In this document: piece by piece, positions 6,095 through 40,303 of the stretch
Numbering within the stretch: position 1 is the first letter of the stretch
Layout: the number at the start of each line of letters is the position of its first letter
Assembly: GCA_038063415.1 (NCBI GenBank)
Contig: JBBTVD010000006.1
Coordinates: 9,948-73,947 of the forward strand
Reading direction: 5' to 3'
Length of the DNA: 64,000 nt
DNA from: Patescibacteria group bacterium
GTDB taxonomy: Bacteria > Patescibacteriota > Microgenomatia > Levybacterales > UBA12049
Translations under genes and position numbers: made by a program
Notes under the pieces: model-generated
Told to the model about the DNA's origin: nothing
The model's database searches: none
The model's input: the letters and a program-made list of their open reading frames with translations, nothing else

Positions 6095-6105
6095 AGAGTT
6101 TATAA

Positions 6106-6288: not shown

Positions 6289-6401
6289 TCTACATCATTT
6301 TTCATTATATTACAATACATTACATAACAACTGAATACAAAAGACGATGAGAATAAGAATTAAAAATTATGCAGAGAGTAATAATTAATGAGGGTCTGTA
6401 T

Positions 6402-6605: not shown

Positions 6606-6725
6606 ATGAACATTATCGATAGCTTTGAGTTCTCAATCCACTAGCTTAAAGCGAGCATTTAGCCTCAACTACTACTTGATTTTATCTTTTGTTTCATTTA
6701 TGATCAGGAAGAGCTTCGAAAGGAG

Positions 6726-7175: not shown

Positions 7176-7190
7176 GCTCATCTTTCTAAG

Positions 7191-7230
7191 ACATTTCGGG
7201 TTAGAGTGCCTATCCTCCGAAATGTTTTTA
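7191..7230 (+). terminator. rho-independent terminator after the 6726-7175 gene
   Basis: Inverted repeat acatttcgg...ccgaaatgt followed by a T-run. Confidence 0.5.
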
Positions 7231-7569
7231 GTTGTATTCATCTTCTCGATAAGAGAATAGTAAAAAAAGATATTAAGGCACCTGCAATCGGACCACTCAA
7301 AATTATTAATTTACCCTCTGGGGATGACGCATTGTAGAGTCCCACTATATAAGTATAAAAATTAAATATTTGTTCCTTGAAAATAAAAACTAAACTTAGA
7401 AAAGCAAAGAAGAAAATAGTTTTTTTATTTTCGTAAATAAAAACTACGGGACGAAGAATAATGTATTCTAAAAATAATTCAAAAAAATCTTCATGAGTTA
7501 AGCGATTATATCATGCTACATAAAGTGTATTAAAATATTTTTTCATATATATTCTGTCGTATTTTGCGT

Positions 7570-7606
7570 CTGGACTTCGAATGGCTTTAGCGGTATCGTC
7601 TGCCCT
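7570..7606. repeat. CTGGACTTC...CGGTAYC motif, copy 1 of 3, upstream of recombinase A
   Basis: ctggacttcgaatggctttagcggtatcgtctgccc. Related copies at 34781-34815 and 35700-35735. Confidence 0.4.
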
Positions 7607-7753
7607 GATGAAAAAAGAGGAAGACATAGAAAAAGCGCTGCATATTCTTCAGAAATGCGAAAAGTACTTTTATTGGTATCTTTTGAAACACGATAAAATT
7701 TATATCGAACGCTTCTTTATTCACACCAAGAAACTAAAAAGGATGGTGCAAAA

Positions 7754-21536: not shown

Positions 21537-21939
21537 AAAAAGACAGTCAAAAAATAAAGAACAATTGTTGGAGATATTAAAGAAGACTCCGATTGTTCAA
21601 ATCGCTTGCGAAAAAGCTGGAATTGGTCGAGCAACTTATTATCGTTGGAGAAAAGAAGATGCTGGATTTGCTCAGGTGAGCGATCAAGCACTTCTGGATG
21701 GAAACTTGCTTGTAAATGATATGGCAGAGAGCCAAATGATGAGTGCCATTAAAGACAAAAACATGACTGCTATCATATTTTGGCTTAAGCACCATCATCC
21801 TGCCTATGCAACCAAGATAGAAATCATGGCTTCAAATAAAAACCAAGACATAGTTCTTACCGACGAACAAAAAGAACTCTTAAACAAGGCATTAGAAATG
21901 GCGGCACTTATTCCGCCTCAAGAAAAAGATCATGAATGA
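21520..21939 (+). CDS. HTH protein, probably a terminase small subunit-like protein
   Basis: 139 aa. HTH IACEKAGIGRATYYRWRK. Overlaps the upstream gene and immediately precedes the large terminase. Confidence 0.5.
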   Translation: MDKTIEKRQSKNKEQLLEILKKTPIVQIACEKAGIGRATYYRWRKEDAGFAQVSDQALLDGNLLVNDMAESQMMSAIKDKNMTAIIFWLKHHHPAYATKIEIMASNKNQDIVLTDEQKELLNKALEMAALIPPQEKDHE

Positions 21940-23480: not shown

Positions 23481-23894
23481 CTAAATTCCAAGAATCTGTT
23501 TCTTTTTCTGATCAAATTCTTCTTGAGACAAGATACCTTTTTCTTTTAACTCATTTAGTTTAACGAGCTCATCAGCATCGCTTGTCTGATGATTGTTTCC
23601 TGAGAAATGAGCTTGTGCGTCATATATAGCTTTTTGAACCTCTTTCTTTTTGGAAGTTGGTACGGCGTATTTCTTTCCTCCTGTTGTTTCTAAAGTTATT
23701 TTCCATATACCCATCATAGGTAGTTGAACGCTTGCTATCTGATTTATCGGAATACTTTGAGAACCAACTCCTGCCTTGAATTCAACTCTGTTGGGGAAAA
23801 TCTTAATCCAAAAGCCAGCATAGCTTGTTTCGTATAAAGGTTTTTCTCCGGTTTGTTGTTTATTTCCAAATAGTCCCATTTTGTTCACCTCCAA
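23481..23894 (-). CDS. hypothetical protein with a C-terminal SHOCT domain
   Basis: 137 aa. C-terminus ELVKLNELKEKGILSQEEFDQKKKQIL is the SHOCT signature. Confidence 0.6.
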   Translation of the reverse strand: MEVNKMGLFGNKQQTGEKPLYETSYAGFWIKIFPNRVEFKAGVGSQSIPINQIASVQLPMMGIWKITLETTGGKKYAVPTSKKKEVQKAIYDAQAHFSGNNHQTSDADELVKLNELKEKGILSQEEFDQKKKQILGI

Positions 23895-24004
23895 TCATAA
23901 GTTAATTGCTTAGTCCACCTTAGCATAAAATACCCCTGTATTCAAGGCTAAACTCTTAGTGTGGCTAAGTGGAGTAATGGTCAAGCGTTTTAGACAATAT
24001 ATAC

Positions 24005-24217
24005 ATGAGGAAAAACGCAACGCTTCCAAAAGCCATAGGGAAGAAAATCCAGAAGCGAAGAAAACAAATAGGGATTACTCAGGAGGAAGCCGCCGAAAGA
24101 GCAGGTATCAGCCGAGCCTATATGGGGTATATTGAACAAGGTAGACACGCTCCTTCTCTCGAAGTACTCCAAAAAGTAGCAAAAGCCCTCAAATCTTCCA
24201 TGAGTGACTTCGTTTAA
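24005..24217 (+). CDS. XRE-family HTH transcriptional regulator (paralog of 6402-6605)
   Basis: 70 aa, IGITQEEAAERAGISRAYMGYIEQGRHAPS. Confidence 0.75.
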   Translation: MRKNATLPKAIGKKIQKRRKQIGITQEEAAERAGISRAYMGYIEQGRHAPSLEVLQKVAKALKSSMSDFV

Positions 24218-24245
24218 GGAATTTCTCCTGTACTACCTAAATTTC

Positions 24246-24266
24246 GACCTTTTTGAGGTCTTTTTT
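24246..24266 (+). terminator. rho-independent terminator after the XRE gene
   Basis: gacct-ttttg-aggtc hairpin followed by tttttt. Confidence 0.5.
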
Positions 24267-24279
24267 CGTATAAAAATGG

Positions 24280-24308
24280 TTGAAAAAGCCTAGCTAACTC
24301 TATATAAT
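24280..24308 (+). promoter_or_regulatory. sigma70-type promoter (TTGAAA-N17-TATAAT) for the HTH_17/hsd operon
   Basis: ttgaaa at 24280-24285, 17-nt spacer, tataat at 24303-24308. Confidence 0.55.
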
Positions 24309-24319
24309 ATTGTTATCAA

Positions 24320-24508
24320 TTGGTAAGTAATGTTCATATGGAAAAACTACTAACAATCAAAGAGGCAGCTGAGATACTCAATGTCCACGCCAACACCCTA
24401 CGTTTGTGGGATAAAAAAGGCATTCTGGTAGCTGTGAGGATAGGAGAAAAGCGTACTAGACGTTATCGACAGTCAGATTTAGAAAAGTTTATTAGTCACA
24501 AGAAGTAA
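24320..24508 (+). CDS. HTH_17 (MerR/excisionase-family) DNA-binding protein (paralog of 6106-6288)
   Basis: 62 aa, LLTIKEAAEILNVHANTLRLWDKKGIL. True start may be the internal Met (MEKLL). Confidence 0.7.
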   Translation: MVSNVHMEKLLTIKEAAEILNVHANTLRLWDKKGILVAVRIGEKRTRRYRQSDLEKFISHKK

Positions 24509-24517
24509 TAATTAACT

Positions 24518-26032
24518 ATGGCAAAAAATAATAAAACAGAATCATTCGAAAAAACACTCTTTAAAGCTGCTGACAAGCTCAGAAAGAATATGGACGCGGC
24601 TGAATATAAGCATATTGTGCTTGGTTTGATTTTTCTAAAGTTTATCTCTGACTCTTTCGAAGAAATGTATATAAAATTGTCGGAAGGTAAAGGTGACTAT
24701 TCTGGAGCAGATCCCGAAGATGCTGATGAATATCGTGCAGAGAACGTCTTTTTTGTGCCTCAATTAGCTAGGTGGTCATATCTCTACTCTCGGGCAAAGC
24801 AACCTACAATTGGAACTGATATTGACTCAGCGATGGAGGCAATTGAAAAAGAAAATCCCACACTAAAAGGAATTCTTCCAAAAGTTTATGCTCGTCCCAA
24901 TCTTGATAAGACTGCTTTAGGTGGACTTTTGGACTTAATAGGAAATATTGCTCTTGGCGATACGGCTTCGAAGACTAAAGATTTACTCGGAAAAGTCTAT
25001 GAGTACTTCTTGGGTGAATTCGCACTTGCTGAAGGCAAAAAAGGCGGGCAGTTTTATACTCCACGTAGTGTTGTTCAAATCCTAGTAGAAATGCTTGAGC
25101 CATATAAAGGTCGTGTTTTTGATCCATGCTGTGGTAGCGGTGGAATGTTTGTTATGAGTGAAAAATTCGTTCAGTCGCATCAAGGAAAAATTGATGATAT
25201 TTCAATTTATGGTCAAGAAAGCAACCAAACAACTTATCGACTATGTCGAATGAATCTTGCCATTCGTGGCATTGATGGCTCTCAGGTTAAATGGAACAAT
25301 GAGGGATCATTCCTTAATAATGCACACAAAGATCTTAAGGCAGATTTTGTCATTGCTAATCCACCTTTTAATGACAGTGATTGGAGCGGTGAGCTACTTC
25401 AAAATGATGCTAGATGGAAGCATGGCACCCCCCCAGCTGGAAATGCTAACTATGCTTGGATTCAACACTTCTTATATCATCTTAGTCCTACTGGTAAAGC
25501 AGGTTTCGTTTTATCTAAAGGCTCCTTAACTACTAAAACTAGTAACGAAGGTGAAATAAGAAAAAATCTTATTGAATCAGATTTAGTTGACTGCATTGTC
25601 AATCTCCCAGCCAAGCTATTTCTTAACACACAAATTCCAGCTTGTTTGTGGTTTATGAATCGCAATAAAACTCAGAAAAAAGGAGAGATACTTTTTATTG
25701 ATGCTCGTAACCTTGGGCATTTAATTAATAGAAGAACACTGGAGCTATCAAATGAAAATATCCAGCAAATTTCCCAGACATATCATGATTGGAAAAATGG
25801 TAATGACTACGCAGATAAAGCAGGGTTTTGTAAATCTTCAACGATAGAGGATGTCAAAAAATTAGATTATGTTTTAACACCAGGTCGATATGTAGGGCTA
25901 CCTGATGAAGATGAAGAAATCAACTTCGAAGAGAAATTAGGTCAACTACGATCAGCTTTAAATGATCAAATTAACGAAGAGAATATCCTGAATAAAGAAA
26001 TTCTAGATAAACTTACAAAAATTAAGATATGA
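24518..26032 (+). CDS. hsdM: Type I restriction-modification methyltransferase subunit
   Basis: 504 aa. [19 protein letters not shown] (AdoMet motif I), VIANPPFN (motif IV). Confidence 0.9.
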
Positions 26033-27198
26033 ATAGCAATTCTAATAATATTTGGAGAGAATATCGGCTTGAAGAAGTTGTAGAAACTTTTATTGATTAT
26101 CGTGGAAAAACTCCAACTAAAACCGCATTTGGAGTGCCTCTTGTTACTGCAAAAATAATAAAGAATGGACGCTTACTCCAACCAAATGAATTTATAGATG
26201 AGAATTATTACAAAACTTGGATGACACGCGGCTTCCCAGAAAAAAATGACGTCTTATTAACTACAGAGGCTCCGCTTGGTGAAGTAGCATTGTTAAACAA
26301 TCCTAAGGTTGCATTGGGACAGAGGGTAATTACGATTCGTGGAAAAAAAGGATTTTGTGACAGCATATTTTTAAAATACTATTTCCAAAGTCCATTAGGA
26401 CAAAACTCTCTTTTATCTAGAGCGCAAGGTAGTACCGTTGAAGGAATTAAAGCGGCTGAACTTAAAAAGATGAAGATTCTGATGCCAAATTATGAAACCC
26501 AAATTGAATTATCCAGAGTATTATTTGTGCTTGACCAAAAAATTGACGTTCTTCTTGAGCAAAACAAAACTCTTGAGGATCTAGCGGAAACATATTTTCT
26601 TAAATTATTTGAAGCAGTCTCAGGCGAGAATTCTGGAACACTTGGTGACTACATTGATTTAGATCCTAAAGAAAAAATTAATCGCAACGAAGAATATCGT
26701 TTTTTTGATATGAAGACACTTTCCGAAAACTCTATGTCCATTGCAAACGGGCTGTATCGTATCGTAAATTCGGCATCTTCATTTAGAAATCTTGATACTT
26801 TATTAGCCAAAATTACGCCATGTTTAGAAAATGGAAAAACTGGTTTTGTCATGAATTTGGAAGATAATGAAGTTGCAAGAGGCTCAACAGAGTTTATTGT
26901 AATGAGGTCAAAAGGTTTAGTTAGTCCATATTGGATTTATTGTCTTGCCAGAAGCAAGAATTTTAGAGATGAAGCAATACAATCAATGACGGGTACGTCA
27001 GGTAGGCAGAGGGTTCAAACCTCACAGCTAAAAAATATTAAGGTTAGTTTTAATAAGAGAGACATGGAATCATTCAATGAGATGTGTAAAGGATTTTTTA
27101 ATAAGGTTAAAGAAAATTCTTCTCAAGTGCGCACATTGATAACTCTTAGAAACTTATTATTACCTAAACTAATGAGTACAGAGATTAGATTAAATTAA
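26029..27198 (+). CDS. hsdS: Type I R-M specificity subunit
   Basis: 389 aa with two target-recognition-like halves separated by conserved repeats. 4-bp overlap with hsdM. Confidence 0.8.
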
Positions 27199-27204
27199 AT
27201 TAAT

Positions 27205-28050
27205 ATGGCAAATTTAAGTAGCGTTGATAAGGTTAAAATTGAAAGACTTTTCGGAATGGGAAGTGGTTATGTGTTGGATTTTTCTAACCGCTCACTTCAG
27301 GACTTTATTTTAACCTGCTGCAAAAAAGATATTTTTAATGATAGATATAATCAAGGGTCTGGGTCAAAAGCCAATCGGTTAAGAGCTTTTTGGGATGCCG
27401 AATTAGATAGTGTTGTTGGGAAAGTCTTAACTGAAATGTTGGAGTATTGGAGAACACAAAAAGCATATTCTGATACTGGTATTCCTAAGGGGGAAGAGAC
27501 ACTATACAAAGATTGTTTAGTTATCGCACAAAGATTATCTGGTAAGACTACTAAAACAGAAGTCACTGAGGAAGAATTTCTACAAAAAGAATATAAAATT
27601 ATTTCTGTATCTGCATTAAATATAGATGGAAATGTCGGCGATGTAGTTAAACAAAGAATCAAAGAAATTGATATATGTATGAAGGCAAAAGCACCCCTTG
27701 CCTCAATTTTTCTGGCGGGAAGCACCCTAGAAGGAATACTTTTAAGCACCGCTATTAGCAATCCAAAAGTTTTTAACCAGTCCACATCTGCACCTAAAGA
27801 TAAAGAAGGAAAGGTTTTAAAGTTGAATGAATGGAAATTAAGTCAGTTAATTGATGTCGCCTGCGAAATTGGCTATTTGGATTTAGATATTAAAAAATTT
27901 AGCCACTCACTGAGAGATTTTCGTAACTATATTCATCCTTATGAACAAGCTTTAGCTGGATTTAACCCAGATGATGATACTGCTCAGATATGCTGGCAGG
28001 TATTAAAGGCTGCCATATCAGATTTAGGCAAAAAACAAACAACACTATGA
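27205..28050 (+). CDS. hypothetical protein embedded between hsdS and hsdR (possible HEPN-like motif)
   Basis: 281 aa. C-terminal [13 protein letters not shown] loosely fits Rx4-6H(xY). Contains AQRLSGKTT, a possible degenerate P-loop. Position is analogous to prrC-type genes inserted in hsd loci. Stop overlaps the hsdR start (ATGA). Confidence 0.55.
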
Positions 28051-31000
28051 CACAAATATTTGAATCAGATGTAGAAAAATTAACGGTCGACCTATTGATT
28101 AATCAAGGGTTTACTTATCTGTCTCCTGAAGAACAGGAATTAGAGCGGCAGAATCTAAAAGACGTTTTATTAGTAAATCGATTGAAGGTTTCCATAGATC
28201 GTTTAAATCCATCAATTACTGCTGACGCAAAAGCCCAAGCTCTAAAACAAGTTTTAAACCTTCCAACACAAAACCTACTTGAGAACAATGAGGCATTCCA
28301 CCGAATGCTTACAGAAGGCATCGAAGTTGAATATATGAGTAATGAAGGTGTCAGAGGTGAAAAAGTTTGGCTTGTTGATTTTAATGATATTGCCAACAAC
28401 GAACTTATCGTCACCAATCAATTTACTGTTATAGAAAATAACATTAACAAAAGACCAGATGTCATTATCTTTATTAATGGTTTGCCTCTCGTTGTTATCG
28501 AACTTAAAAACCCTACTGACGAAAATGCTACGGTTCAAAAAGCATTTACTCAACTACAAAATTATAAAAATGCAATTCCTTCACTTTTTTACTACAACAG
28601 TATTTTAATTGCGTCCGATGGTCTAGATGCTAAAGTCGGAACTATTTCTTCTGATTATTCTCGTTTTCTTGCTTGGAAATCTAAAGATGGATATAGGGAT
28701 GACAAGACAGTTGTTCCTCAAATAGAAACGCTGATCGATGGAATGTTAGTAAAAAATGTTCTTATTGATTTGATCAAACAATTCATTGTCTTTGAAAAAT
28801 CCAGTCATATCGATAGTAATACCGGGCTAACGACTATTAGTACAATCAAGAAAATAGCTGCTTATCACCAGTACTATGCAGTTAATAAAGCTGTTGAATC
28901 TACAATAAGAGCGTCAGATGACGATAGCTTAGAATCTACTGCTTTATTAGTAAGAGAAAAACCAGAAGAGTATGGTTTATCTTCAACTGTTAAACAGCCT
29001 AAGGGTGATCATAAAGCTGGTGTCGTGTGGCACACGCAAGGTAGTGGAAAATCTCTTTCAATGGTTTTTTATGCTGGAAAAATTGTATTGGCACTTAATA
29101 ATCCCACCGTGGTTGTCATAACAGATCGCAATGACCTAGACGAGCAATTATTTGATACATTTGCCAACTGTAAGCAACTCCTTAGACAAGATCCTGTTAA
29201 GGCTGAAAATCGCGATCACCTTAAAAAATTACTGAAAGTAGCTGGTGGTGGAATTGTATTTACAACAATTCAAAAGTTCTTTCCTGAGGATGGATCATCA
29301 ACTTACGATGAACTTTCAGACCGCAGTAATATTATTGTTATTGCTGATGAAGCCCATCGAAGTCAGTACGGATTCGGAGCCAAAACTACTTATACAGTTG
29401 ATGGCGTAAAAACGGGTTACGGGTTTGCAAAATATCTAAGAGATGCATTGCCATCAGCCTCATTTATTGGCTTTACGGGTACTCCTGTAGAAAAAGAGGA
29501 TGCAAATACCCCAGCAGTCTTCGGAAATTATATAGACGTTTATGATATTGCTAAGGCCGTAGAAGACGGTGCAACAGTTCGTATTTATTACGAATCAAGA
29601 CTTGCTCAGATTCATCTTAAACCAGATGAAAAGGCACAACTAGATGCAGAAGTAGAAGCTATCACAGAAGGTGAAGAAAGTACTGCTAAAGAAAAGGCAA
29701 AAGCAAAATGGGCTCAGCTGGAAGCTGTAGTTGGACACAGAGACAGGCTTGGAGTAATTGCTTCTGACATTGTTGACCACTTCGAGAAGCGACAGGAAGT
29801 CTTTGAAGGCAAGGCAATGATTGTTGCTATGAGTCGGCGAATTGCTGTTGAGCTCTTTGAAGAAATTGTTAAATTACGACCAGACTGGTTTGACAAAGAT
29901 CTTAGAAAAGGTGCCGTTAAAGTTGTAATGACATCCACCTCTTCCGATCCAGAGAGTTGGCAAATTCACAACACCACTAAACAAAACCGTAAGGATCTTG
30001 GAGAACGATTTAAAAATCCTATCGATCCATTAAAACTCGTTATAGTGCGTGATATGTGGCTCACTGGTTTTGACGCGCCATGTCTTAACACGATGTACGT
30101 TGATAAGCCAATGCAGGGACATAACCTTATGCAAGCGATTGCTCGTGTAAACAGAGTATTTAAAGATAAACCAGGTGGATTAATTGTTGATTACATTGGT
30201 ATTGCTTCTGATCTAAAGAATGCTTTAGCGACATATACCGCAAGCGGTGGTGAAGGCACGCCAACTTTAGATCAAGAAGAGGCTGTTGCGGCGATGCTTG
30301 AAAAATTTGAAATCGTTGAACAAATGTTTGATCAATACGACTTTGAACCTTACTTTACCGCTGATACTCATAAAAAATTGACCATTATCCTCGAGAGCCA
30401 AGAATATATTCTTGGACTTGAAGATGGCAAGAACCGTTTTACCAAGCAGGTAGATCTCCTATCTAAGGCTTTTGCGCTATCAGTTCCCCATCCAAAAGCA
30501 ATGGAGATAAAAGATGAAGTTGGATTTTTTCAAGCAATTAAAGCCAGACTTGTAAAGTTTGAGCCAACTTGTAGTGGAAAGTCAGATGCTGAAATTGAAA
30601 CTGCAATAAGACAGATTGTTGATAAGGCCGTGGTCTCTGATGGAATTGTTGATATATTCGATGCGGCCGGTATCAAGAAACCAGATATTTCAATTCTTTC
30701 TGATGACTTCTTAGCTGAAATTCAGGGCATGGAACGAAAAAACTTGGCAATGGAGCTTTTGAAAAAGATTCTCAATGACGAAATCAGATCACGAGTTAGA
30801 AAGAATTTCATTCAGAGCAAAAAGATGTCTGAAATGCTTGAGAATGCTATTAGAAAATATCAAAACAATTTATTAACTACAGCACAGGTTATAGAGGAGC
30901 TGATTAAACTTGCTAAAGATATTCGAGAGGGAGACAAGCGAGGTGCATCATATGGTCTAACGGATGATGAACTAGCTTTTTATGACGCTTTGGCAATTAA

Positions 31001-31238
31001 CCAAAGTGCAATGGAGGTTCTTGGTGATGCTCAACTTAGGGATTTATCAAGAGTACTTGTGCAGAGAGTTAAATCAAACACTTCAATTGATTGGACTATC
31101 AAAGAAAGTGTACAAGCCAAGTTAAGAGTGATTGTTCGTCGCACTTTACGACAATTTGGTTATCCACCAGATGCCCAATTACTTGCGACCGAAAATGTGT
31201 TGAAACAGGCTGAGCTGTTGGCCGATGATTGGAAATAA
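28047..31238 (+). CDS. hsdR: Type I restriction enzyme R subunit
   Basis: Start taken at the Met of [12 protein letters not shown]. Walker [13 protein letters not shown] box [10 protein letters not shown], helicase C-terminal motifs. Confidence 0.9.
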
Positions 31239-31247
31239 CAAAAATTT

Positions 31248-34010
31248 ATGAATGATGAAAAAATACTCATTAAACAATTCTTTCAAAATTTCCTTGTAAA
31301 AGAAAAGGGTAAAGACAATATTAGTAATGAATATGTTGCCTTCTTAAAAATTCTGTGGAACGGTCTCGATGATTTAATATCTAAAAATAAAATTGCTCGA
31401 AAGATTTACATATTAGAACATATTGAAAAATATCTTATTGAAGATACTTTTCGAACTCAAATAGATTTAAGCGAACTGCCAATTGCCAGTGAACTTGCTG
31501 CATCTCAAGATACAAACACACCTGAGATCACACTTAAAGATATTGATCTAGTCAACTTCCGAGGTTTTAGAGCTAATACTAATGGGAGCGGAAGAAAAAT
31601 TAGATTTCACGAAAAAGTGACTTTAATTTTTGCTCCAAATGGTGGAGGAAAAACTAGTCTATGTGAAAGTATTGAATGGGCACTTACCGGCGACACTTAC
31701 GAACATACAAAAAGAAAAACAGATTCAACACTTAATTATTTTCAAAATCGAAGTAATGCAGATCCGACATATCAAAACACTAAGCTTTCGTTTTTAAACA
31801 ATCAACCTACTGTTCCCAATTTAATTTTTGATCGATGTCTTCTAGAAAAAAATCGAATAGACAAATTTGCGAAACTTGCAATGCAGCCTAATAAAGATCT
31901 GCAAGAAATTCTTGGGGAGTTGTTTGGATTTTCTGATGTTGTAGATTTTTTTAAAGAGTTTGGCCAAGATCTTTCACCCACAGATAACGAAAAAGGTCGC
32001 CCAGGAAGAGAAAACTGGCAGACATGGTTAGAGTGGAGCAATAAAAAAAGTGAACTAGAAAAAATATTAGACGAATCAAAAAAAGAAGAGAAAAAAGCTA
32101 GTGAGGATTTGGAGAAACTCACAGGAGAAAAGAGTTTTGATGACAAAAAAGTTGAGATTGAAGAAAAAGGGAAAGAACTCCGCATCAAGCTTGAGAGCCT
32201 TGAGAAAAATTCTAGCAAGCAATTTTCTACAAAATCTTTTCAAGACAAGATAACTTTACATAAAGATAAAATCGAGCAGTGGAAAAAACTTGATAAGGAT
32301 ATATCTGATAATGCTAAGGATCTTGATTTTGAAAGCCTTTTCCAAGCAGCTAATAATATTTTCAAAAATAATTACAGTGATAATAAATGTCCGCTTTGCG
32401 ATACTCCTATTGAACAGAAACCAGAGAATCCCAATCATGTTTGTGTAGTTACTAGTCCTCAACTAAAGACAGAACAAGAATTGAAGAAACTTAAAAAGCT
32501 AACCGATTGGAAAGTTGAAAGGAATAAACTTGAAATAGATTTAAAAGGTACTTGCTTTAGAGAAATAAGGGACGATTGGCAAAAGATACAACATAATTTA
32601 ATAGATGAAAATTGGAAAGACATCGCGGGCGAAACTGAAAAACCATTAATTCCAGATGTCAATCTTATTGAGATTGAATCTAAGCTTGATGGGAATACAA
32701 ACTCATTTATTGACGCATATGAACTTATATTAGGTAAGGATTTCACTGCATTGGCTGAGTTAGAGGGAAAAGTAACATCTTACAAAAATTTGAAGGATGA
32801 GTTATTGAAAGATAAGCCACAGAAAGAAATTGAGATTCAAAATCTACGTGATGAATTTGCCAAACTACAGGAACAAAAAAATATACTTTCTGCAAAACAG
32901 CAAATCACAAAAAGTAGCGATGAAAGATTGAAAAAGATCCTAAATCAATCCAGCAATTCAGATTTATTTAAAAAGATGTTGGACGTTTATCCAGATTTTT
33001 ATAATGATCTGCAAAATTTTCAATCTGGTTCGATCTTATCTGAAGGTGCTGATATTGATGACTATGTAACGGGCTTTTACCGAGCTTTGAACTTACATGA
33101 TAACGTTGGCGAGATAATAAAAGAAATTAAATTCCCCAAAGGACTTCAAGAAGATTTTTGTTTAATATTTGAAAGCAATAATACCTGTAATGCCCTAGAT
33201 ATCCTCAGCGAAGGGCACTTAAAGACTCTTGGTCTTGCTGCTCTACTTGCCAGAGCAGCTAAGTACAATACGTCCCTGCTTGTCTTTGATGATGCTATCA
33301 ACGCTATCGATTCTGACCATAGAGATAACATTGCTTGTTTATTATCAGGAAGTTTCTCTGACGAAGAAGGAGTTAGTTCATTTGGAGAAAAGTGGGATCA
33401 AATAAAACAATATATAAAAGTATGCCAATTTGTAATAACGTCCCATGACCGCTTCTTTGATGAAAAAATCGCCAATCTATTTTCTAAGGACGAACAATTA
33501 AGATATGTTTTATATTGTGGAGCTGAAGGAGTTGATTTTTGTGAAAAAGGTAATCCAGCCAACTTTGAAGCTAAAGTCGAAGGCTTTTTAAACCCAGATA
33601 CTCAGGATGTTCGCTCAGCAATATTTTATTGTCGTATCTGGTTAGAAGAAATACTTATGGACATCGCAGCAAATTTTAAAAAGCCAAGTAATGGTAAACA
33701 AATCGATTTTTCCAATACTATTGATAAAAAGTCTCGCAAATTAAAAAATCCTGAATTGGCAACTGTAATTCGTAGCTTGGTTTCAAATTTGAAAGTAAAT
33801 GAGGCTTCAGATGATGAAAAAATAACAGCTGGCATTTTAGACCAGATTTATCAAGAAAAGGAAGGAAAGTATATTTGGTTTTTCGAGATCTTGAATCAAG
33901 AAAGTCATTATCGTCGACTTGATCACGTAGATATCTCTAATGCTCCAACAAGTAATGAAGTTCAAGCAATCTTTAATAAGATTCAAGAGATACAAACTCT
34001 CAATACTTAA
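31248..34010 (+). CDS. Rad50/SbcC/SMC-like ABC ATPase with a central CxxC zinc-hook-like motif
   Basis: 920 aa. N-terminal Walker A FAPNGGGKTSLCESIEWAL (RecF/SMC type). Central KCPLCDTPIE inside a predicted coiled-coil. C-terminal signature LSEGHLKTLGLAALLA and Walker B/D-loop LLVFDDAINAIDSDH. Confidence 0.75.
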   Translation: MNDEKILIKQFFQNFLVKEKGKDNISNEYVAFLKILWNGLDDLISKNKIARKIYILEHIEKYLIEDTFRTQIDLSELPIASELAASQDTNTPEITLKDIDLVNFRGFRANTNGSGRKIRFHEKVTLIFAPNGGGKTSLCESIEWALTGDTYEHTKRKTDSTLNYFQNRSNADPTYQNTKLSFLNNQPTVPNLIFDRCLLEKNRIDKFAKLAMQPNKDLQEILGELFGFSDVVDFFKEFGQDLSPTDNEKGRPGRENWQTWLEWSNKKSELEKILDESKKEEKKASEDLEKLTGEKSFDDKKVEIEEKGKELRIKLESLEKNSSKQFSTKSFQDKITLHKDKIEQWKKLDKDISDNAKDLDFESLFQAANNIFKNNYSDNKCPLCDTPIEQKPENPNHVCVVTSPQLKTEQELKKLKKLTDWKVERNKLEIDLKGTCFREIRDDWQKIQHNLIDENWKDIAGETEKPLIPDVNLIEIESKLDGNTNSFIDAYELILGKDFTALAELEGKVTSYKNLKDELLKDKPQKEIEIQNLRDEFAKLQEQKNILSAKQQITKSSDERLKKILNQSSNSDLFKKMLDVYPDFYNDLQNFQSGSILSEGADIDDYVTGFYRALNLHDNVGEIIKEIKFPKGLQEDFCLIFESNNTCNALDILSEGHLKTLGLAALLARAAKYNTSLLVFDDAINAIDSDHRDNIACLLSGSFSDEEGVSSFGEKWDQIKQYIKVCQFVITSHDRFFDEKIANLFSKDEQLRYVLYCGAEGVDFCEKGNPANFEAKVEGFLNPDTQDVRSAIFYCRIWLEEILMDIAANFKKPSNGKQIDFSNTIDKKSRKLKNPELATVIRSLVSNLKVNEASDDEKITAGILDQIYQEKEGKYIWFFEILNQESHYRRLDHVDISNAPTSNEVQAIFNKIQEIQTLNT

Positions 34011-34012
34011 TC

Positions 34013-34768
34013 ATGTCCAAATACTACAATCCAAATCGCACAAGAAATCTATATAACGCAAACTCTTCAGAATTATTTCGTTTAAGTCGTTCTAAGATTG
34101 ATCTTTTCTTAAATTGTCCTCGTTGTTTTTACCTTGATCGTCGATTAGGAGTGGGTCAACCACCTGGATATCCATTTTCTCTCAATTCTGCTGTAGATAA
34201 GCTTCTAAAGAAAGAATTTGATACATACAGAGCCAATAAGACGTCACATCCATTAATGAAAACGTACGGTATCGATGCCGTTCCACTTGCTCATGAAAAA
34301 ATCGATGAATGGAGAGATTCATTGCGGGCAGGTATAACTTTCAAAATTAATGATGAAAATGTTGTCATAACTGGTGGCGTAGACGACGTGTGGGTAACTC
34401 CAGAAGGTGAATTCATCATTGTGGACTACAAAGCGACTTCTAAAGACGCTGAGGTAACGCTCGATGCAGACTGGCAAATCGGTTACAAACGGCAGATGGA
34501 GATATATCAGTGGTTATTCCGTCAAAACGGCTTTAAGGTTTCTCCTGTAGGTTACTTTGTGTATTGTAATGGCGATACCGACCCAGCGGCATTCGACGGG
34601 AAACTGGAGTTTGATATAAAAGTAATTCCTTATGAAGGCAATACCGATTGGGTTGAACGAACGATTTTAGATGCAATCAAATGCCTCAAGGCAGATGAAA
34701 TGCCTGATCCAGGCGAAGATTGCGATTTTTGCAAGTACCGTCAGGCCGTACGACAATTTGAGAAATAA
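34013..34768 (+). CDS. Cas4/RecB-like PD-(D/E)xK nuclease with cysteine pairs compatible with an Fe-S cluster
   Basis: 251 aa. GGVDDVW...EGEFIIVDYK (D/ExK), QMEIYQW (QxxxY motif), N-terminal CPRC and C-terminal CDFC. Starts 3 bp after the SMC-like gene. Confidence 0.75.
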   Translation: MSKYYNPNRTRNLYNANSSELFRLSRSKIDLFLNCPRCFYLDRRLGVGQPPGYPFSLNSAVDKLLKKEFDTYRANKTSHPLMKTYGIDAVPLAHEKIDEWRDSLRAGITFKINDENVVITGGVDDVWVTPEGEFIIVDYKATSKDAEVTLDADWQIGYKRQMEIYQWLFRQNGFKVSPVGYFVYCNGDTDPAAFDGKLEFDIKVIPYEGNTDWVERTILDAIKCLKADEMPDPGEDCDFCKYRQAVRQFEK

Positions 34769-34780
34769 CTCATTCTAAAC

Positions 34781-34815
34781 CTGGACTTCCTCGCTTTTTC
34801 CCGATACCTTGTGCT
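34781..34815. repeat. CTGGACTTC...CCGATACCTTG motif, copy 2 of 3
   Basis: ctggacttcctcgctttttcccgataccttgtgct. Closely related to the copy at 35700-35735. Confidence 0.4.
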
Positions 34816-35076
34816 GGGATGGATAGCAAAAATCAAAAAGACAAGGTACTCGTACTTCTCCGAAGGTCAGAAAAATACTTCTACAAGTATCTCCTCACGC
34901 ATGATTCTGTGTATTATTGATCGATTTTTCTCCGTAACTAAGAAATTAAGGAGATTAATAGAGAAATTTGAGCATAAATGAGATGTTGAGTGTCACTTAG
35001 CATTTACGCATGAAAACTGATATAATCTTGCTAAGCTAGACTAAGCATTTAGCCTGAAAAAGGAGGTGATATACAT

Positions 35077-35625
35077 ATGAAGAAATTACTTAAATGGGTA
35101 GGAATAGGATTTATCATCCTTATAGTAATCGGAGTTATTGGCAGTATGGGAAGTGACAGTAAAAAAGTAGGATCAACTACTGATACTACTCAAACTTCAA
35201 ATACAAAAGAGCAACCAACTCAGGAAACGTACAAAGTTGGTGATAAAGTCCAAATGTCAGATATTATCCTTACTGTAAATAAAGTAGAAACAGCCCAAGG
35301 AGGTCAGTACACAAAGCCATCTGAAGGTAATCAGTGGATTGATGTAAACATGACTCTTGAGAATACAGGATCAAGTCAGCAGTACATTACAACAATGGGT
35401 CAGATGTTCGTCATAGATGGCGAAAATAATCAGTACCAAGTTGCAGTAACTGGAAAAAGACTAGAAAATGCTGGTTCTTTAGGAATGGATGGTGCATTAA
35501 TTGCAAAAGCCAAGAAAACTGACTGGGTAGGATTTGAAGTACCAAAGACTGCAAAAGGTCTCAAGCTTCAGTACAACGCAAGTTTTTATAGTAATAAGAA
35601 AATATTGGTCGATCTTGGAATGTAA
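35077..35625 (+). CDS. DUF4352-like membrane-anchored secreted protein
   Basis: 182 aa. Signal-anchor MKKLLKWVGIGFIILIVIGVIG. DUF4352-type beta-rich domain (GDKVQM...NQWIDVNMTLENTG...FVIDGENNQY). RBS aaaaaggaggtgat. Paralogous context to 6726-7175. Confidence 0.7.
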   Translation: MKKLLKWVGIGFIILIVIGVIGSMGSDSKKVGSTTDTTQTSNTKEQPTQETYKVGDKVQMSDIILTVNKVETAQGGQYTKPSEGNQWIDVNMTLENTGSSQQYITTMGQMFVIDGENNQYQVAVTGKRLENAGSLGMDGALIAKAKKTDWVGFEVPKTAKGLKLQYNASFYSNKKILVDLGM

Positions 35626-35649
35626 TTATTACTATCTAAAGACGAAAAG

Positions 35650-35676
35650 TGCCTGAATAACATCGGGCATTTTTTG
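35650..35676 (+). terminator. rho-independent terminator
   Basis: tgcctga-ataaca-tcgggca stem (one G-U pair) followed by tttttt. Confidence 0.55.
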
Positions 35677-35699
35677 TGATGTTTTATAGTATTTTGAAG

Positions 35700-35735
35700 C
35701 TGGACTTCTCGAGAGGTTCCCGGTACCTTGACCAC
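35700..35735. repeat. CTGGACTTC...CCGGTACCTTG motif, copy 3 of 3, immediately upstream of or overlapping the recombinase B start
   Basis: ctggacttctcgagaggttcccggtaccttgacc. Confidence 0.4.
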
Positions 35736-37062
35736 TGAAATGGCTAAGATACCCGCCCCCGCAAACCAAATAATGCCTCCAATATTAAGCGTGGAATATT
35801 GCTTATACGCAAGAAAATCAAGCGAGGATGATGAACGCCAAGCCATGTCGATTGACTCTCAGATTAAAGAAATGACCGATCTTGCATCTAGAGAAGGCTT
35901 CTTCATCAAAGAAATTCGGCGAGAAAGCCATTCAGCCAAAGAATCAGGACAACGACCAGTTTTTAAGAAACTTCTGGAAGATATTCGAGATGGAATGTTT
36001 ACTGGCATTCTTTCATGGGCTCCTGATCGACTCAGTCGAAATGCTGGGGATTTGGGAATGGTTGTCGATCTTATGGACCAAGGCAAACTACAGCAAATTA
36101 AGACCTTCTCGCAAAGCTTCTCGAACAATCCTAATGAAAAGTTTTTACTCATGATCCTCTGCTCTCAGGCGAAACTGGAGAATGATCAAAAAGGAATCAA
36201 TGTAAAAAGAGGTATTCGAGCCAAATGTGAAATGGGCTGGCGACCAGGGATGCCTCCCATCGGCTATTACAATAGAGCTTTTGCAGGTGTTAAAGATATT
36301 GTGATAGATCCGGACAGAGGGCACATTGTTGCTGAGATGTTTGAACGAGTAGCAAGAGATGGAGATAGTGGTAGGACACTGAAGAAATGGCTCGATACTT
36401 GCCTCACCACAAGAACAGGTAAACAAGTTACATTAAGCCAGATTTATCTCATGCTGAAAAATCCATTCTATTATGGAGAATTTGAATACCCAATTGGTGG
36501 TGGCAATTGGTACAAAGGTGCATACAAACCACTAATTACTCGAGATATATTTGATCAAGTACAAAAACAATTAATTGTTCCTAAGAAATCAAAATGGGGA
36601 GGCAAAACATTTACTTTCAAAGAATTGTTTAAATGTGCAAGCTGTAGGTCATTGGTTATTGGTGAGGATAGATATAGAAAACGAAAGTATAACGAGCCAC
36701 GCTATCATATTTACTATCATTGTACGAGGCAAAAGAAATATGGCTGTCCTGAACCATATATCACTGAAGAAAAACTAATAAAACAGATTCTTCGTTACAT
36801 CAATTTCATGTATATGGCACATCCTCAGCTTTTCGAGTTAAATAACTTTTTGAAATATAGTATGGGCGAGTACAAGAAAATGAGAGATGAAATTCTGTGG
36901 GCACAAGATATTAATCCAGATAACAAACCAATCAACCTTATGGATTATGCCAACTACGCATTTCGCAACGGGACAATGCAGGAAAAGAGAGAAATAACCA
37001 ATGTATTAAAGAGACAACTGTATATTCATAACGAAACAGTTACTTCATTACCTCTTATCTAA
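35728..37062 (+). CDS. large serine recombinase (paralog of 7754-9055)
   Basis: 444 aa. N-terminal VEYCLYARKSSEDDERQAMSIDSQIKEM is nearly identical to recombinase A and the two align along their full length. The true start is possibly the in-frame ATG at 35773 (MPPILSVEY...), which aligns with recombinase A's N-terminus and avoids the upstream repeat motif. Confidence 0.85.
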   Translation: MTTEMAKIPAPANQIMPPILSVEYCLYARKSSEDDERQAMSIDSQIKEMTDLASREGFFIKEIRRESHSAKESGQRPVFKKLLEDIRDGMFTGILSWAPDRLSRNAGDLGMVVDLMDQGKLQQIKTFSQSFSNNPNEKFLLMILCSQAKLENDQKGINVKRGIRAKCEMGWRPGMPPIGYYNRAFAGVKDIVIDPDRGHIVAEMFERVARDGDSGRTLKKWLDTCLTTRTGKQVTLSQIYLMLKNPFYYGEFEYPIGGGNWYKGAYKPLITRDIFDQVQKQLIVPKKSKWGGKTFTFKELFKCASCRSLVIGEDRYRKRKYNEPRYHIYYHCTRQKKYGCPEPYITEEKLIKQILRYINFMYMAHPQLFELNNFLKYSMGEYKKMRDEILWAQDINPDNKPINLMDYANYAFRNGTMQEKREITNVLKRQLYIHNETVTSLPLI

Positions 37063-37243
37063 TCAAGAGTAAATCTTCCGTTCAAATCCGATTACTCTGG
37101 TTACCTCGGACATCATCGAACCGTAGCTACAATATCCGAGCTTTGAGGGTATTTTTGCGGTACGAATGTTTTGAACAAAAATGAGGCGTTTAGCAAGCCA
37201 GTTCGGGCTTTTTAGAGAGTACGGTCACTCTCGGTTCTTATAT
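37063..37243. repeat. att-arm-like segment between recombinase B and tRNA-Gln (paralog of 14776-14964)
   Basis: G+C-richer than surroundings. Conserved blocks shared with 14776-14964. Confidence 0.45.
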
Positions 37244-37317
37244 TGGCTGCCGGACCTGGATTCGAACCAAGATGAAAGGATTCAGAGTCCTCTATCCTAC
37301 CATTAGATGATCCGGCA
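37244..37317 (-). tRNA. tRNA-Gln (anticodon CUG), 74 nt with encoded CCA
   Basis: Minus-strand sequence TGCCGGATCATCTAATGGTAGGATAGAGGACTCTGAATCCTTTCATCTTGGTTCGAATCCAGGTCCGGCAGCCA. 7-bp acceptor stem with U1:A72 (as in E. coli tRNA-Gln), anticodon arm GAGGA-CUCUGAA-UCCUU, T-arm CTTGG-TTCGAAT-CCAGG, discriminator G, CCA. Confidence 0.85.
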
Positions 37318-37543
37318 GTGAAGCTATTTTACTAAAATTCCACTCAAAAAGCCAATTGCTCTTTAATGGTCTAATTACTCTAGATCAAACTTGTTATTCT
37401 AGACTTTGAGCCGACTGAGATTTTGAGGCTGTTCCTGTTGATTATTTTGCACCAGCTTTCGAAGATATACTGACCTATCTCGAACATATAGAAAAATAGC
37501 TTGCAAAATGGTCGAGATACTGTACAATAAGATCCACTAACCT

Positions 37544-40303
37544 ATGTCACTTGGTAATATCGTTCTTCTTGGTTTTGTCGTCCTCTTCTTCTTCACGTCC
37601 TTTTTTAATAATGGCATTATGCTCCTTACTGACTGGTGGTGGTTTCAAGAGGTTGGCTATACTGACGTCTTTACCAAACCGGTTATCACCCAATTTGCTC
37701 TCGGAATTGCCGTTGGATTATTCACTTTTCTTTTTCTGTCAGGTAACTTCTGGGTAGCAAGCAAAGCACGGATTCCTTGGATCGTCTTTTTGCCACAGCA
37801 ACTCCTTGGAAGATATATCACGCTCACTGGTGCTGCTGTGAAGAAGACAACCTATGTCATCAGCCTTCTCTTAGCATTTTTTATCGGGCTTATCTCCTCT
37901 GTTTTTTGGCAAGAAGTCCTTCTGTTTATGCACCAGACACCTTTCGGGCAGACAGATCCTATTTTTGCCCATGATATCTCCTTTTATCTTTTTACCCTCC
38001 CTATTTTAGGTATTGGACTGCAACTTGTGTGGTTTATTTTGCTCCTGACGATCCTTGGCTGTGGCATTATCTACGCCCTTCGAGGAAGTTTTGGCTGGCT
38101 CAATTTTCTAGCAAAGAAACAAGCAAAAGCTGAGGTAGCCGAAAAGAACACCCAACGCAATGCACGGATACATATGGCAGTACTTTTTGCGCTTTTCCTC
38201 GCAACGATTGCAGCACAAACCTATTTGGGGATGTATGATCTGCTGACTCGAGATAATGGCGCAGTATTTGGTGCGGCATTTACGGATGTAACACTGCTTA
38301 TTCCCTTCCACAAAATACTTGCCGCTCTTCTTGCTGTTTGTGCTCTTGCAACCCTCCTCTATGGAGCAATAAATAGCCGAAAACCCCTCTTTGTAACTGC
38401 TGGTCTGACAGCAATTATTGGAGTAGCTATGATTGTCATGCCACCGCTCTATCATCAATTTATCGTCGCTCCAAATGAACTGGTCAAAGAAACGCCATTT
38501 ATCAAACACAATATTACCGCGACCAGAGAAGCATTTGGACTACAAGAGATAGCTGCACGAGAGCTTTCTGGAGATAAGCCTTTGACGGCTGAAGATATCG
38601 CGGATAATGATCTGACGATCAAAAACGTCCGACTGTGGGATCGTGGACCGCTACTTTCTACCTTCTCGCAGATTCAGGAAATACGAACGTACTACGAATT
38701 TACTGCCGTTGATAACGATCGTTATGTAATCGACGGGCAACTCAGGCAAATTATGCTTTCACCTCGAGAGCTGTCTTCAGCCAATCTGCCAAATAAGAAC
38801 TGGATCAATGAACACCTTATCTTTACCCATGGCTATGGGACAGCTGCAGGGCCGGTTAATCAGGTAACCGAGGAGGGACTTCCAGTATTATTTGTGAAGA
38901 ACTTGCCCCCAGTCGCTGAGAAAAAAGAATTGGCAATTACCCGTCCTGAAATCTACTACGGAGAACTTGCCAACGATCATATTTTTGTCAAAACCAAAGC
39001 CAAAGAATTTGATTATCCTAAAGGTGATGAAAATGTCTCGACAGTTTATGCAGGAGAAGGTGGTGTTCCAATTGATTCATTCGTCAAAAAAAGTGCATTT
39101 GCTCTGCGGTTTAACTCACTCAAAATGCTCCTCTCTGAAGATATCACGGGCGAAAGTCGGGTTATGTATTACCGTACGATTAAAGAACGTATGGAGAAAT
39201 CAGCGCCCTTCCTGACCTTTGATAAAGATCCATACAGCGTGATTGTCGATGGCAAGATTTATTGGATTGCTGATGCCTATACGATAAGTAGGAACTATCC
39301 CTATGCAAAAGCAATGATGCTCAATGGACAGGACATTAACTACATCCGCAACTCCGTCAAAGTAGTGATTGATGCTTATAATGGAACAATAACCTATTAT
39401 CAGGTCGACCAGAATGATCCTATCATAAACGCTTATGCACAAGTTTTCCCTGGAATGTTTCGACCCATCAATGAGATGCCGACAGCACTCTTCGCACATA
39501 TCCGTTATCCTGAGGATATCTTTACCCTCCAAACGAACATTTATAGTACCTATCATATGGGCGATCCTGAAATCTTTTATAACAAAGAAGACCAATGGGA
39601 CATCCCGGCTATTGCCGTAGAAGGAGAAGCTACAACCACAGACATCCCACCGATGGCTCCACGTCATATGATTATGAAGCTTCCAGGACAGGAACGTGAA
39701 GAATATATCCTGATGCTTCCTTTTATCCCACGAGGCAAGGACAATATGGCTGCCTGGATGGTCGCTCGAAATGACCAAGAGAATTATGGTAAATTACAGA
39801 TTTATCAATTCCCCAAGCAAAAGCTGATCTACGGACCAAAACAAATTATGGCACGTATTAATCAAGATGCTGAGATTGCAAGGCAAATATCGCTTTGGGA
39901 TCAGCGTGGATCACAAGTAATCCAAGGGCCGCTCCTTGTCATCCCAATTGAGGAATCATTGCTGTACGTCAGACCGTTATATCTAAAGGCAGAATCCGGT
40001 AAAATTCCAGAACTGAAAAGAGTTATTGTGGCCTATGAAAATAAAATTGCTATGGAGCCAACGCTTGAAGCAGGACTTGGGAAGATCTTTGGCACAGATA
40101 CCACTCAAGAAGCAGAAACAACAATGCAACAAAAGCCTACGGATAAAGTTGCCGAGGCACAGGCACCAACTGCGGTGACACAAGATCAACAGATTATCCA
40201 GGCGAATCAAGCATATGATGCTGCTATGCAAGCCCTCCGAGATGGCAATTGGACACTGTTTGGCGAGGAGATCCAGAAGGTAGGAGAAATACTAAAGAAG
40301 TAA
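37544..40303 (+). CDS. UPF0182-family large integral membrane protein
   Basis: 919 aa. Multiple N-terminal TM helices followed by a large extracytoplasmic domain. N-terminal sequence (LLTDWWWFQEVGY...) and size typical of UPF0182. Confidence 0.8.
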   Translation: MSLGNIVLLGFVVLFFFTSFFNNGIMLLTDWWWFQEVGYTDVFTKPVITQFALGIAVGLFTFLFLSGNFWVASKARIPWIVFLPQQLLGRYITLTGAAVKKTTYVISLLLAFFIGLISSVFWQEVLLFMHQTPFGQTDPIFAHDISFYLFTLPILGIGLQLVWFILLLTILGCGIIYALRGSFGWLNFLAKKQAKAEVAEKNTQRNARIHMAVLFALFLATIAAQTYLGMYDLLTRDNGAVFGAAFTDVTLLIPFHKILAALLAVCALATLLYGAINSRKPLFVTAGLTAIIGVAMIVMPPLYHQFIVAPNELVKETPFIKHNITATREAFGLQEIAARELSGDKPLTAEDIADNDLTIKNVRLWDRGPLLSTFSQIQEIRTYYEFTAVDNDRYVIDGQLRQIMLSPRELSSANLPNKNWINEHLIFTHGYGTAAGPVNQVTEEGLPVLFVKNLPPVAEKKELAITRPEIYYGELANDHIFVKTKAKEFDYPKGDENVSTVYAGEGGVPIDSFVKKSAFALRFNSLKMLLSEDITGESRVMYYRTIKERMEKSAPFLTFDKDPYSVIVDGKIYWIADAYTISRNYPYAKAMMLNGQDINYIRNSVKVVIDAYNGTITYYQVDQNDPIINAYAQVFPGMFRPINEMPTALFAHIRYPEDIFTLQTNIYSTYHMGDPEIFYNKEDQWDIPAIAVEGEATTTDIPPMAPRHMIMKLPGQEREEYILMLPFIPRGKDNMAAWMVARNDQENYGKLQIYQFPKQKLIYGPKQIMARINQDAEIARQISLWDQRGSQVIQGPLLVIPIEESLLYVRPLYLKAESGKIPELKRVIVAYENKIAMEPTLEAGLGKIFGTDTTQEAETTMQQKPTDKVAEAQAPTAVTQDQQIIQANQAYDAAMQALRDGNWTLFGEEIQKVGEILKK

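Follow-up and report, generated by a model that had tools for sequence, protein, structure and literature searches.

Introduction

RloC is an ATP-binding cassette (ABC) ATPase that combines a coiled-coil/CX2C insert with a C-terminal anticodon nuclease (ACNase) triad, Arg-X3-Glu-X36-52-His, in which a Ser often precedes the His, and the catalytic role of this triad was demonstrated by mutagenesis (PMC2610378). The RNase domains of PrrC and RloC are HEPN domains, fusions of which to ABC ATPases are often found in restriction-modification (R-M) operons, and HEPN domains that are not catalytic also exist (PMC3710099). In the present work, a 920-residue ATPase and the 251-residue nuclease encoded immediately after it were analyzed. 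Both genes lie downstream of a Type I R-M operon in a stretch of 64,000 nt from a Patescibacteria group bacterium (assembly GCA_038063415.1, contig JBBTVD010000006.1, positions 9,948 to 73,947 of the forward strand), which is referred to below as the window. Bacteria of the candidate phyla radiation (CPR) have tiny genomes and few recognised defences.

A preliminary description, made from the sequence alone, had presented these two genes as a dedicated, Lamassu-like pair of a Rad50/SbcC-like ATPase and a Cas4-like nuclease. The reading favoured here, with moderate confidence, is that the 920-residue protein unites sensor and effector in one RloC-like, self-contained polypeptide and travels with R-M systems, and that the nuclease is a separate gene belonging to the frame of the island. 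Judged from sequence and structural models, the ATPase most likely belongs to the known class of ABC-ATPase–HEPN proteins (RloC/PrrC), as a divergent variant linked to R-M genes.

Results and Discussion

Domain architecture of the ATPase

The two open reading frames (ORFs) and the domains predicted for the ATPase, with the predicted local distance difference test (pLDDT) as the measure of model confidence, were the following:

31248-34010, + strand: ORF of the 920-residue ATPase, the last gene of the variable cargo
31248-31532, + strand: N-terminal helical domain (residues 1-95; helices at residues 3-88, pLDDT 90-95)
31533-32033, + strand: N-lobe of the ABC head (residues 96-262; AAA_23, E 3e-13; SMC_N, E 3e-9)
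32034-33089, + strand: helical coiled-coil insert with CPLC (residues 263-614; helices in the AlphaFold2 model)
33090-33482, + strand: C-lobe of the ABC head (residues 615-745; invariant columns in alignment A1; Rad50/SMC structural matches)
33483-34007, + strand: predicted C-terminal HEPN-fold domain (residues 746-920; putative catalytic R796-x3-E800 and S-H887)
34013-34768, + strand: ORF of the 251-residue PD-(D/E)xK nuclease with a 2+2 cysteine cluster (PDDEXK_1, E 6e-15)

Alignment A1 comprised 27 homologs of the ATPase (49-100% identity plus one at 32%), across which Walker A, CPLC-D-T-P, LSEGH, FDD (680-682), the D-loop and H733 of the H-loop were invariant. The Walker A region, FAPNGGGKTSLCESIEWAL, occupies residues 128-146 and contains the core PNGGGKTS (residues 130-137, nt 31635-31658), with P130-K135 and S137 invariant. 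The hook motif CPLC (residues 381-384, nt 32388-32399) is part of the extended sequence C381-P-L-C384-D-T-P, and is followed by the ABC signature LSEGH at residues 653-657 and the Walker B/D-loop FDDAINAID at residues 680-688. In the AlphaFold2 model (pLDDT 80.4), long helices at 263-371 and 404-614 interrupted the ABC head, and CPLC was located in the low-confidence loop connecting them. The best Foldseek matches of this model in the PDB were Rad50, cohesin and condensin heads, the Lamassu protein LmuB, JetC and MukB; the LmuB chains 9uxh_F and 9hqu_A were ranked behind Rad50 and cohesin.

Because of the invariant motifs, the modelled helices around CPLC and the Foldseek matches, the zinc-hook ATPase of the preliminary description stands, and the protein is predicted to be a Rad50/SMC-like ABC ATPase of the zinc-hook type, with long helices flanking the CPLC loop as expected for a coiled coil with a hook. 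All of the motifs quoted there for both ORFs were present in the sequence. Two further conserved domains, residues 1-95 and approximately 746-920, had not been mentioned. An identical copy of the protein, from a metagenome-assembled genome of Patescibacteria, was on record (P0001); given this copy and the motifs kept by homologs, neither the ATPase nor the nuclease is a chance ORF.

The window protein resembles Rad50/SbcC in the ABC head fold, in the helical insert with a CP[VL]C-type hook at its tip, and probably in the binding of DNA ends. By contrast, its helical arms are much shorter and asymmetric, its Walker B ends in DD instead of DE, and it carries the extra HEPN-like domain. The canonical Rad50/SbcCD assignment was rejected, since the score against TIGR00606 was 15.9 bits (cut-off 453.75) and no Mre11/SbcD phosphoesterase was found among the window neighbours or in the related loci.

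Around 35 close homologs of the ATPase were found, in addition to a sister family (P0037-P0049) of 850-950 residues with about 25% identity. The two families were homologous over their full length (hhalign E 4e-86, 831 columns), including the N-terminal domain, which was also conserved in A1. The sister family keeps the CPxCxTP hook and the R-x3-E…[ST]H positions, and its profile matched the Rad50 hook structure 6zff (E 0.006). Its loci (L023-L072) were mostly solitary and without R-M genes, which fits a self-sufficient one-protein system. Members of this family showed the N-domain/ABC/CPxC/HEPN-like architecture and came from soil and rhizosphere metagenomes.

The last 175 residues most likely adopt a HEPN fold, according to a model of this domain alone (pLDDT 76, predicted template modelling score 0.75). 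The only C-terminal positions conserved at 90% or more in both families were R796, E800, one Leu, W877, L882, N883 and H887, giving the consensus R-x3-E … W-x(2-4)-L-N-x-x-[S/T]-H. In the window, R796-x3-E800 is encoded at nt 33633-33647, and the His of N883-Q-E-S-H887 at nt 33906-33908. The combination of R-x3-E…S-H, an ABC head and a CX2C insert therefore gives the window protein a predicted architecture like that of RloC.

This family was missed by all of the models searched: no Pfam, NCBIfam or PADLOC model recognised the 920-residue family above threshold, nor did PADLOC or Pfam for the sister family, and the C-terminal domain gave no Pfam match. The NCBIfam matches of the ATPase were at P-loop level only, as were those to PARIS, Septu, Gabija, Dnd and Pbe, which were discarded as candidates. 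The best PADLOC match was a weak one to LmuB (PDLC03859, E 5e-15, 53.8 bits, residues 96-746), so that this defence-system search yielded a distant Lamassu similarity and no catalogued system above threshold. A word-based search with the C-terminal domain returned only three short proteins, apparent fragments of the same family, and a profile of the domain run against 1.84e9 representatives retrieved 354 clusters, nearly all of 850-930 residues and with the domain at the C-terminus. PDB sequence searches did not return any PrrC or RloC structure.

Association of the ATPase with R-M systems

The ATPase gene is separated by 9 nt from the end of hsdR (31238), in agreement with the position directly downstream of hsdR given previously. 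The operon that precedes it contains hsdM, hsdS and hsdR, and was thus recognised as Type I with Pfam, PADLOC and NCBIfam:

24518-26032, + strand: hsdM (N6_Mtase, E 4e-113; HsdM_N; PADLOC MTase_I)
26029-27198, + strand: hsdS (Methylase_S, E 7e-17; PADLOC Specificity_I)
27205-28050, + strand: 281-residue ORF between hsdS and hsdR
27990-31238, + strand: hsdR (HSDR_N/SWI2_SNF2/T1RH-like_C, E up to 2e-129; PADLOC REase_I; TIGR00348, 610 bits)

The surroundings of the ATPase were examined in 17 distinct contexts, and in 14 of them, representing at least six R-M types, the ATPase directly followed a same-strand R-M gene at a distance of 9-143 nt. The genes upstream of the ATPase were:

Type I hsdR: window, L001, L007
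hsdS: L014
MmeI-like: L005, L165
Type ISP: L011
ResIII helicase: L012, L018, L021, L163 (in L012, L021 and L163 the ResIII gene has an endonuclease domain and an N6_N4 methyltransferase lies further upstream)
AlwI endonuclease and two D12 methyltransferases: L017
C5 methyltransferase and HhH-GPD: L015
EcoRI-like methyltransferase: L003
PIF1 helicase and a different PDDEXK_1, not R-M: L010/L022
DinG-like and HTH_17, not R-M: L164
none, ATPase solitary: L166

When a second gene recurring with the ATPase was searched for, R-M components were the only ones obtained. As a control, R-M genes made up at most about 6-10 of 63 (roughly 10-15%) in the slot upstream of the nuclease, a figure that is an upper estimate among the families listed and not a count; compared with it, the adjacency of the ATPase to R-M genes gave a Fisher p <= 6e-7 with the loci treated without correction for phylogeny. 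The tie between the ATPase and the adjacent R-M operon that had been suggested for the window is therefore supported well beyond this locus. Moreover, a relative with 88% identity (L163) was located behind a Type III-like system and another with 84% (L007) behind a Type I system; the closest relatives thus follow different R-M types, and the linkage has been re-made repeatedly. Since so many unrelated R-M enzymes are involved, a shared signal is favoured over a specific protein contact.

Pure co-localisation, with the ATPase as an independent single-gene defence that merely shares hotspots with R-M genes, appears rather unlikely. The ATPase was always downstream, on the same strand and adjacent in these 14 contexts, far above the R-M share of the hotspot, and close ATPases have become re-associated with different R-M types. 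In its favour are the many unrelated defence genes held by the slot upstream of the nuclease, the three ATPase contexts and most of the sister-family loci without R-M genes, and the fact that RloC itself is rarely R-M linked (PMC2610378).

A role as an accessory DNA-handling subunit of R-M systems, and not as a suicide RNase, is considered unlikely. Such a Rad50-like tether or end-binder would aid restriction, or repair or limit the breaks of self-restriction, and the HEPN-like domain would be a non-catalytic module binding nucleic acid or protein. The linkage in cis to many R-M types and the Rad50/SMC-like head and hook speak for it, the canonical Rx4-6H arginine is missing, and some HEPN domains are non-catalytic (PMC3710099). 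However, although the two families have only about 25% identity, no residues of the domain are better conserved between them than R-x3-E and [ST]-H, whose pattern is catalytic in RloC. Besides, R-M genes are lacking at L166 and at most loci of the sister family, and a partner of the Mre11/SbcD type was missing from the neighbours analyzed.

The downstream nuclease and exchange of the cargo

Only 2 nt separate the stop codon of the ATPase from the ATG of the nuclease, so that the gene order of the preliminary description was correct and its distance of 3 bp was not. The motifs of the nuclease are CPRC (C35, C38), IIVDYK (D138, K140), Q161xxxY165 and CDFC (C237, C240). Across 84 sequences, the four cysteines, D125, D138-x-K140 and Q161…Y165 were conserved at 99% or more, and the protein is therefore very probably an active enzyme. 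It resembles Cas4/AddB in its PD-(D/E)xK core (D125, D138-x-K140, QxxxY) and in the four conserved cysteines bracketing the fold. Cas4 cysteines are arranged 1+3, whereas those of the window nuclease are arranged 2+2 (CxxC…CxxC), and the latter is ubiquitous in CPR genomes beside hypervariable defence cargo. The score against Cas4 TIGR00372 was 33.4 bits (cut-off 65), a search of the window for tandem-repeat arrays was negative, and the neighbouring genes scanned gave no Cas match beyond this weak one; a Cas4 or CRISPR identity was consequently dismissed. No homolog of the nuclease was retrieved by PDB sequence search.

Homologs of the nuclease were far more numerous than those of the ATPase (at least 8000 vs about 35), the top 120 having 78-100% identity and about 251 residues. 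A scan of one genome per species yielded at least 576 loci, of which the best 80 (L083-L162, reference genomes) were used for the analysis of neighbourhoods. These 80 had 70-96% identity in the scan, with a range of 64-96% given for the nuclease of the window and L083-L162, and came from very distant CPR lineages (Microgenomates, Parcubacteria, Saccharibacteria, Gracilibacteria, Peribacteria and WWE3); two genomes had two copies each. No homolog of the ATPase was present in any of the 80, and hsd genes were present in only about 8, which rules out the nuclease as a generally R-M-linked gene. Both of its flanks were hypervariable and contained many defence genes (OLD, Shedu, GmrSD, reverse transcriptases, Schlafen-like, R-M): in about 63 loci, the neighbours fell into 47 sequence clusters upstream and 53 downstream. 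The upstream genes, which were on the same strand in around 90% of the loci and often at a gap of 0-12 nt, included OLD-type ATPase-TOPRIM, YgjP, UvrD, GmrSD, Shedu, Schlafen-like proteins, reverse transcriptases and methyltransferases. In CPR genomes, the upstream side of the nuclease is thus a hotspot at which defence cargo of diverse kinds is inserted, and the gene itself appears either to anchor such a hotspot or to belong to a mobile backbone.

A swap of the cargo was observed at L083, whose nuclease is 96% identical to that of the window at the protein level. Besides the nuclease, the frame of the window island consists of:

24005-24217, + strand: XRE-type helix-turn-helix (HTH) protein, left frame (HTH_3, E 3e-16)
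24320-24508, + strand: HTH_17/MerR-like, excisionase-type HTH protein, left frame (HTH_17, E 1e-12)
35077-35625, + strand: DUF4352 protein, right frame (Pfam)
35642-35677: strong terminator after the DUF4352 gene, the only strong one in a terminator scan
35728-37062, + strand: large serine recombinase, right frame (Pfam)
37244-37317, - strand: tRNA-Gln, directly past the serine recombinase

On the left, positions 23843-24510 corresponded to 1-667 of L083 at 88% nucleotide identity, and the homology ended just before the first cargo gene. On the right, homology started exactly at the ATG of the nuclease and extended through the DUF4352 and recombinase genes at 82-86% nucleotide identity (82% for 35077-37317 against 12059-14262 of L083). 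Between these shared flanks the window holds hsdM, hsdS, the 281-residue ORF, hsdR and the ATPase, and L083 a SNF2 helicase, an N6_N4 methyltransferase, a ResIII/TnsA-like endonuclease and a UvrD helicase. Since L083 keeps the flanks and the nuclease and swaps the cargo, the ATPase gene is assigned, with the hsd operon, to the part that is exchanged, and the nuclease to the frame.

The gene following the ATPase in other genomes was also compared:

251-residue PDDEXK_1 nuclease: window
DUF2779: L163
PIN_12: L001
HEPN_AbiV: L005
DUF2130: L010, L011
GmrSD: L164
HSDR_N_2/DUF5655 protein: L007
no same-strand gene (absent or on the other strand): L003, L012, L165, L166

These downstream genes belong to unrelated families without a domain in common. 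Of the 12 ATPase loci that extended 1 kb or more downstream, only the window had the nuclease next to the ATPase; in L007 two other genes lie between them. In L165, a 61-residue relic of the nuclease (9783-9965, 79% identity) was observed directly after the ATPase homolog, which itself follows a PLD-SNF2 and MmeI-like system; the relic suggests recombination or decay at the nuclease boundary.

The dedicated pair of the preliminary description did not survive these comparisons: the nuclease was found many times over without the ATPase, the gene downstream of the ATPase varied, and the cargo was swapped in L083. A Rad50-plus-Cas4 pair is therefore not supported. A separate nuclease is not needed as an explanation either, because the ATPase likely has its own effector in the C-terminal HEPN domain.

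A looser two-gene sensor-effector, in which the ATPase would recruit or activate an interchangeable downstream gene in a Lamassu-, Septu- or PARIS-like manner with the HEPN-like domain as an adaptor, is judged to be quite improbable. The lack of a common domain among the downstream genes and their absence in four loci are difficult to reconcile with it, and so are the numbers of homologs, the two intervening genes of L007, and the homology with L083 that begins at the ATG of the nuclease behind a different cargo. The genes upstream of the nuclease elsewhere are, in addition, complete stand-alone systems (OLD, Shedu, GmrSD), and the sister family is solitary. In its favour, the genes lie close together (gaps of 2 nt in the window, and from -4 to 62 nt in L005/L006, L001, L163 and L164), a nuclease-family gene lies directly downstream on the same strand in 8 of 13 contexts, and the 251-residue nuclease or its relic is present in 3 of 12 ATPase loci. 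The similarity to LmuB, the best PADLOC match and one of the top Foldseek matches, points in the same direction, but it is weak (54 bits), and neither LmuA nor LmuC was found among the neighbours scanned.

A coiled-coil ATPase of the SMC/Rad50-like kind is common to Lamassu and the window. By contrast, the window protein carries its effector-like domain as a C-terminal extension of the ATPase, and the gene order is different. Apart from the ATPase, eight window genes between hsdM and UPF0182 (24518-40303) were scanned with PADLOC, which did not detect LmuA or LmuC in them, and Lamassu was rejected as an identification.

Three side observations were made at the nuclease loci. In L009, a 967-residue PHP+SMC_N/AAA_21 protein (5074-7977), presumably resembling the Ppl system of Gao et al., lies between the hsd operon and the nuclease. 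In L008, a reverse transcriptase (1013-2536) is located inside the hsd operon. Many of the records, L083 among them, are titled 'uncultured Gammaproteobacteria bacterium', which looks like mislabelling or bins of epibiont plus host.

Comparison with RloC and PrrC and possible mode of action

As in RloC, the ABC head is interrupted by a coiled-coil/CX2C insert and followed, in the same order, by a predicted C-terminal HEPN-type domain with the R-x3-E … S-H pattern, in an apparently self-contained polypeptide of about 900 residues encoded in a defence-island/R-M context. The window protein differs from RloC in its extra conserved N-terminal domain of 95 residues (pLDDT above 90) and in the linkage of its family to R-M genes in cis in about 80% of the contexts, compared with 8 of 72 RloC genes (PMC2610378). 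The family is found in Patescibacteria, and a tRNase activity would follow from analogy. With PrrC it shares an ABC ATPase followed by a putative HEPN RNase domain with the Arg-x3-Glu…His triad, and a place inside or beside an hsd operon, where it would back up restriction as a second line of defence. PrrC, however, has about 400 residues, lacks a coiled-coil or hook insert, and is tied to Type Ic systems between the hsd genes, whereas the window family follows many R-M types and is always at the 3' end.

Several results weigh against an assignment to this class. No sequence profile places the 920-residue protein in PrrC/RloC. The Pfam family AAA_13, to which PrrC and RloC belong, gave no match at E <= 0.01 with the window protein and 24-34 bits (cut-off 36) with the sister family. 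The spacing from Glu to His is 71-91 residues vs 36-52 in RloC, the loop with the conserved S-H was modelled at low confidence (pLDDT 40-46), and the arginine of the canonical HEPN Rx4-6H is absent. The profile of the C-terminal domain reached its own ~350 clusters only. Regarding the genomic context, L010/L022, L164 and L166 lack an upstream R-M gene, and the nuclease-family genes of some kind that lie directly downstream in the 8 of 13 contexts could be a real but interchangeable partner.

If the ATPase nevertheless acts as RloC and PrrC do, its ATPase/hook module would keep the HEPN RNase silent and would switch it on upon sensing something common to all R-M types. The likeliest trigger would be DNA ends or breaks produced during restriction, or else the loss of restriction; because at least six R-M types are linked, the trigger is more plausibly an output of restriction that they share than one enzyme. 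The RNase would then cut tRNA or another RNA, translation would stop, and the result would be a second-line, abortive defence. The family would add to the 'second-line' class of RloC and PrrC about 350 clusters at 50% identity, with a CPR branch of about 35 members that is R-M-linked.

A broader interpretation, to which only a small probability is given, joins two readings: that the ATPase–HEPN family is an R-M-type-agnostic 'restriction monitor', and that the nuclease is the shared last-gene partner of unrelated CPR defence cargos. If the first were true, the head and hook would read DNA ends and turn ongoing or failed restriction into abortive infection at the RNA level, a kind of coupling that is not known from RloC or PrrC. 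If the second were true, the nuclease would be used by dozens of unrelated cargos and would be more than a hotspot border, for which the shared strand, the short gaps and the 47 upstream gene families speak. The nuclease could also anchor the mining of new CPR defence genes, as hundreds of CPR genomes have it beside a hypervariable slot.

Additional features of the window

To the left of the island, positions 20196-23479 encode a ParB_N+N6_N4 methyltransferase (446 residues), a TerS-like protein (139 residues) and TerL (515 residues; phrog_38, E 1e-76), and no capsid or tail genes were noticed between the terminase genes and the recombinase. The frame looks like a phage-derived integrative island at tRNA-Gln, with the serine recombinase and the tRNA gene probably forming the integration end. 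The best promoter-like site in a promoter scan was located at 24280-24308, ahead of the HTH_17 gene.

The 281-residue ORF runs 61 nt into the annotated start of hsdR and did not match any family in Pfam, PADLOC, NCBIfam or PHROGs. A homolog of it (41% over 85 residues) was detected at 665-1417 of L021, another ATPase locus, beside a different R-M type.

Finally, a second large serine recombinase was observed at 7754-9055, with 72% nucleotide identity to the recombinase region of L083. Near it are a tRNA_anti-like OB-fold protein (6726-7175) and a SIR2_2-domain protein (4913-6094, - strand), and the region 4913-9055 may be a second island or defence locus.

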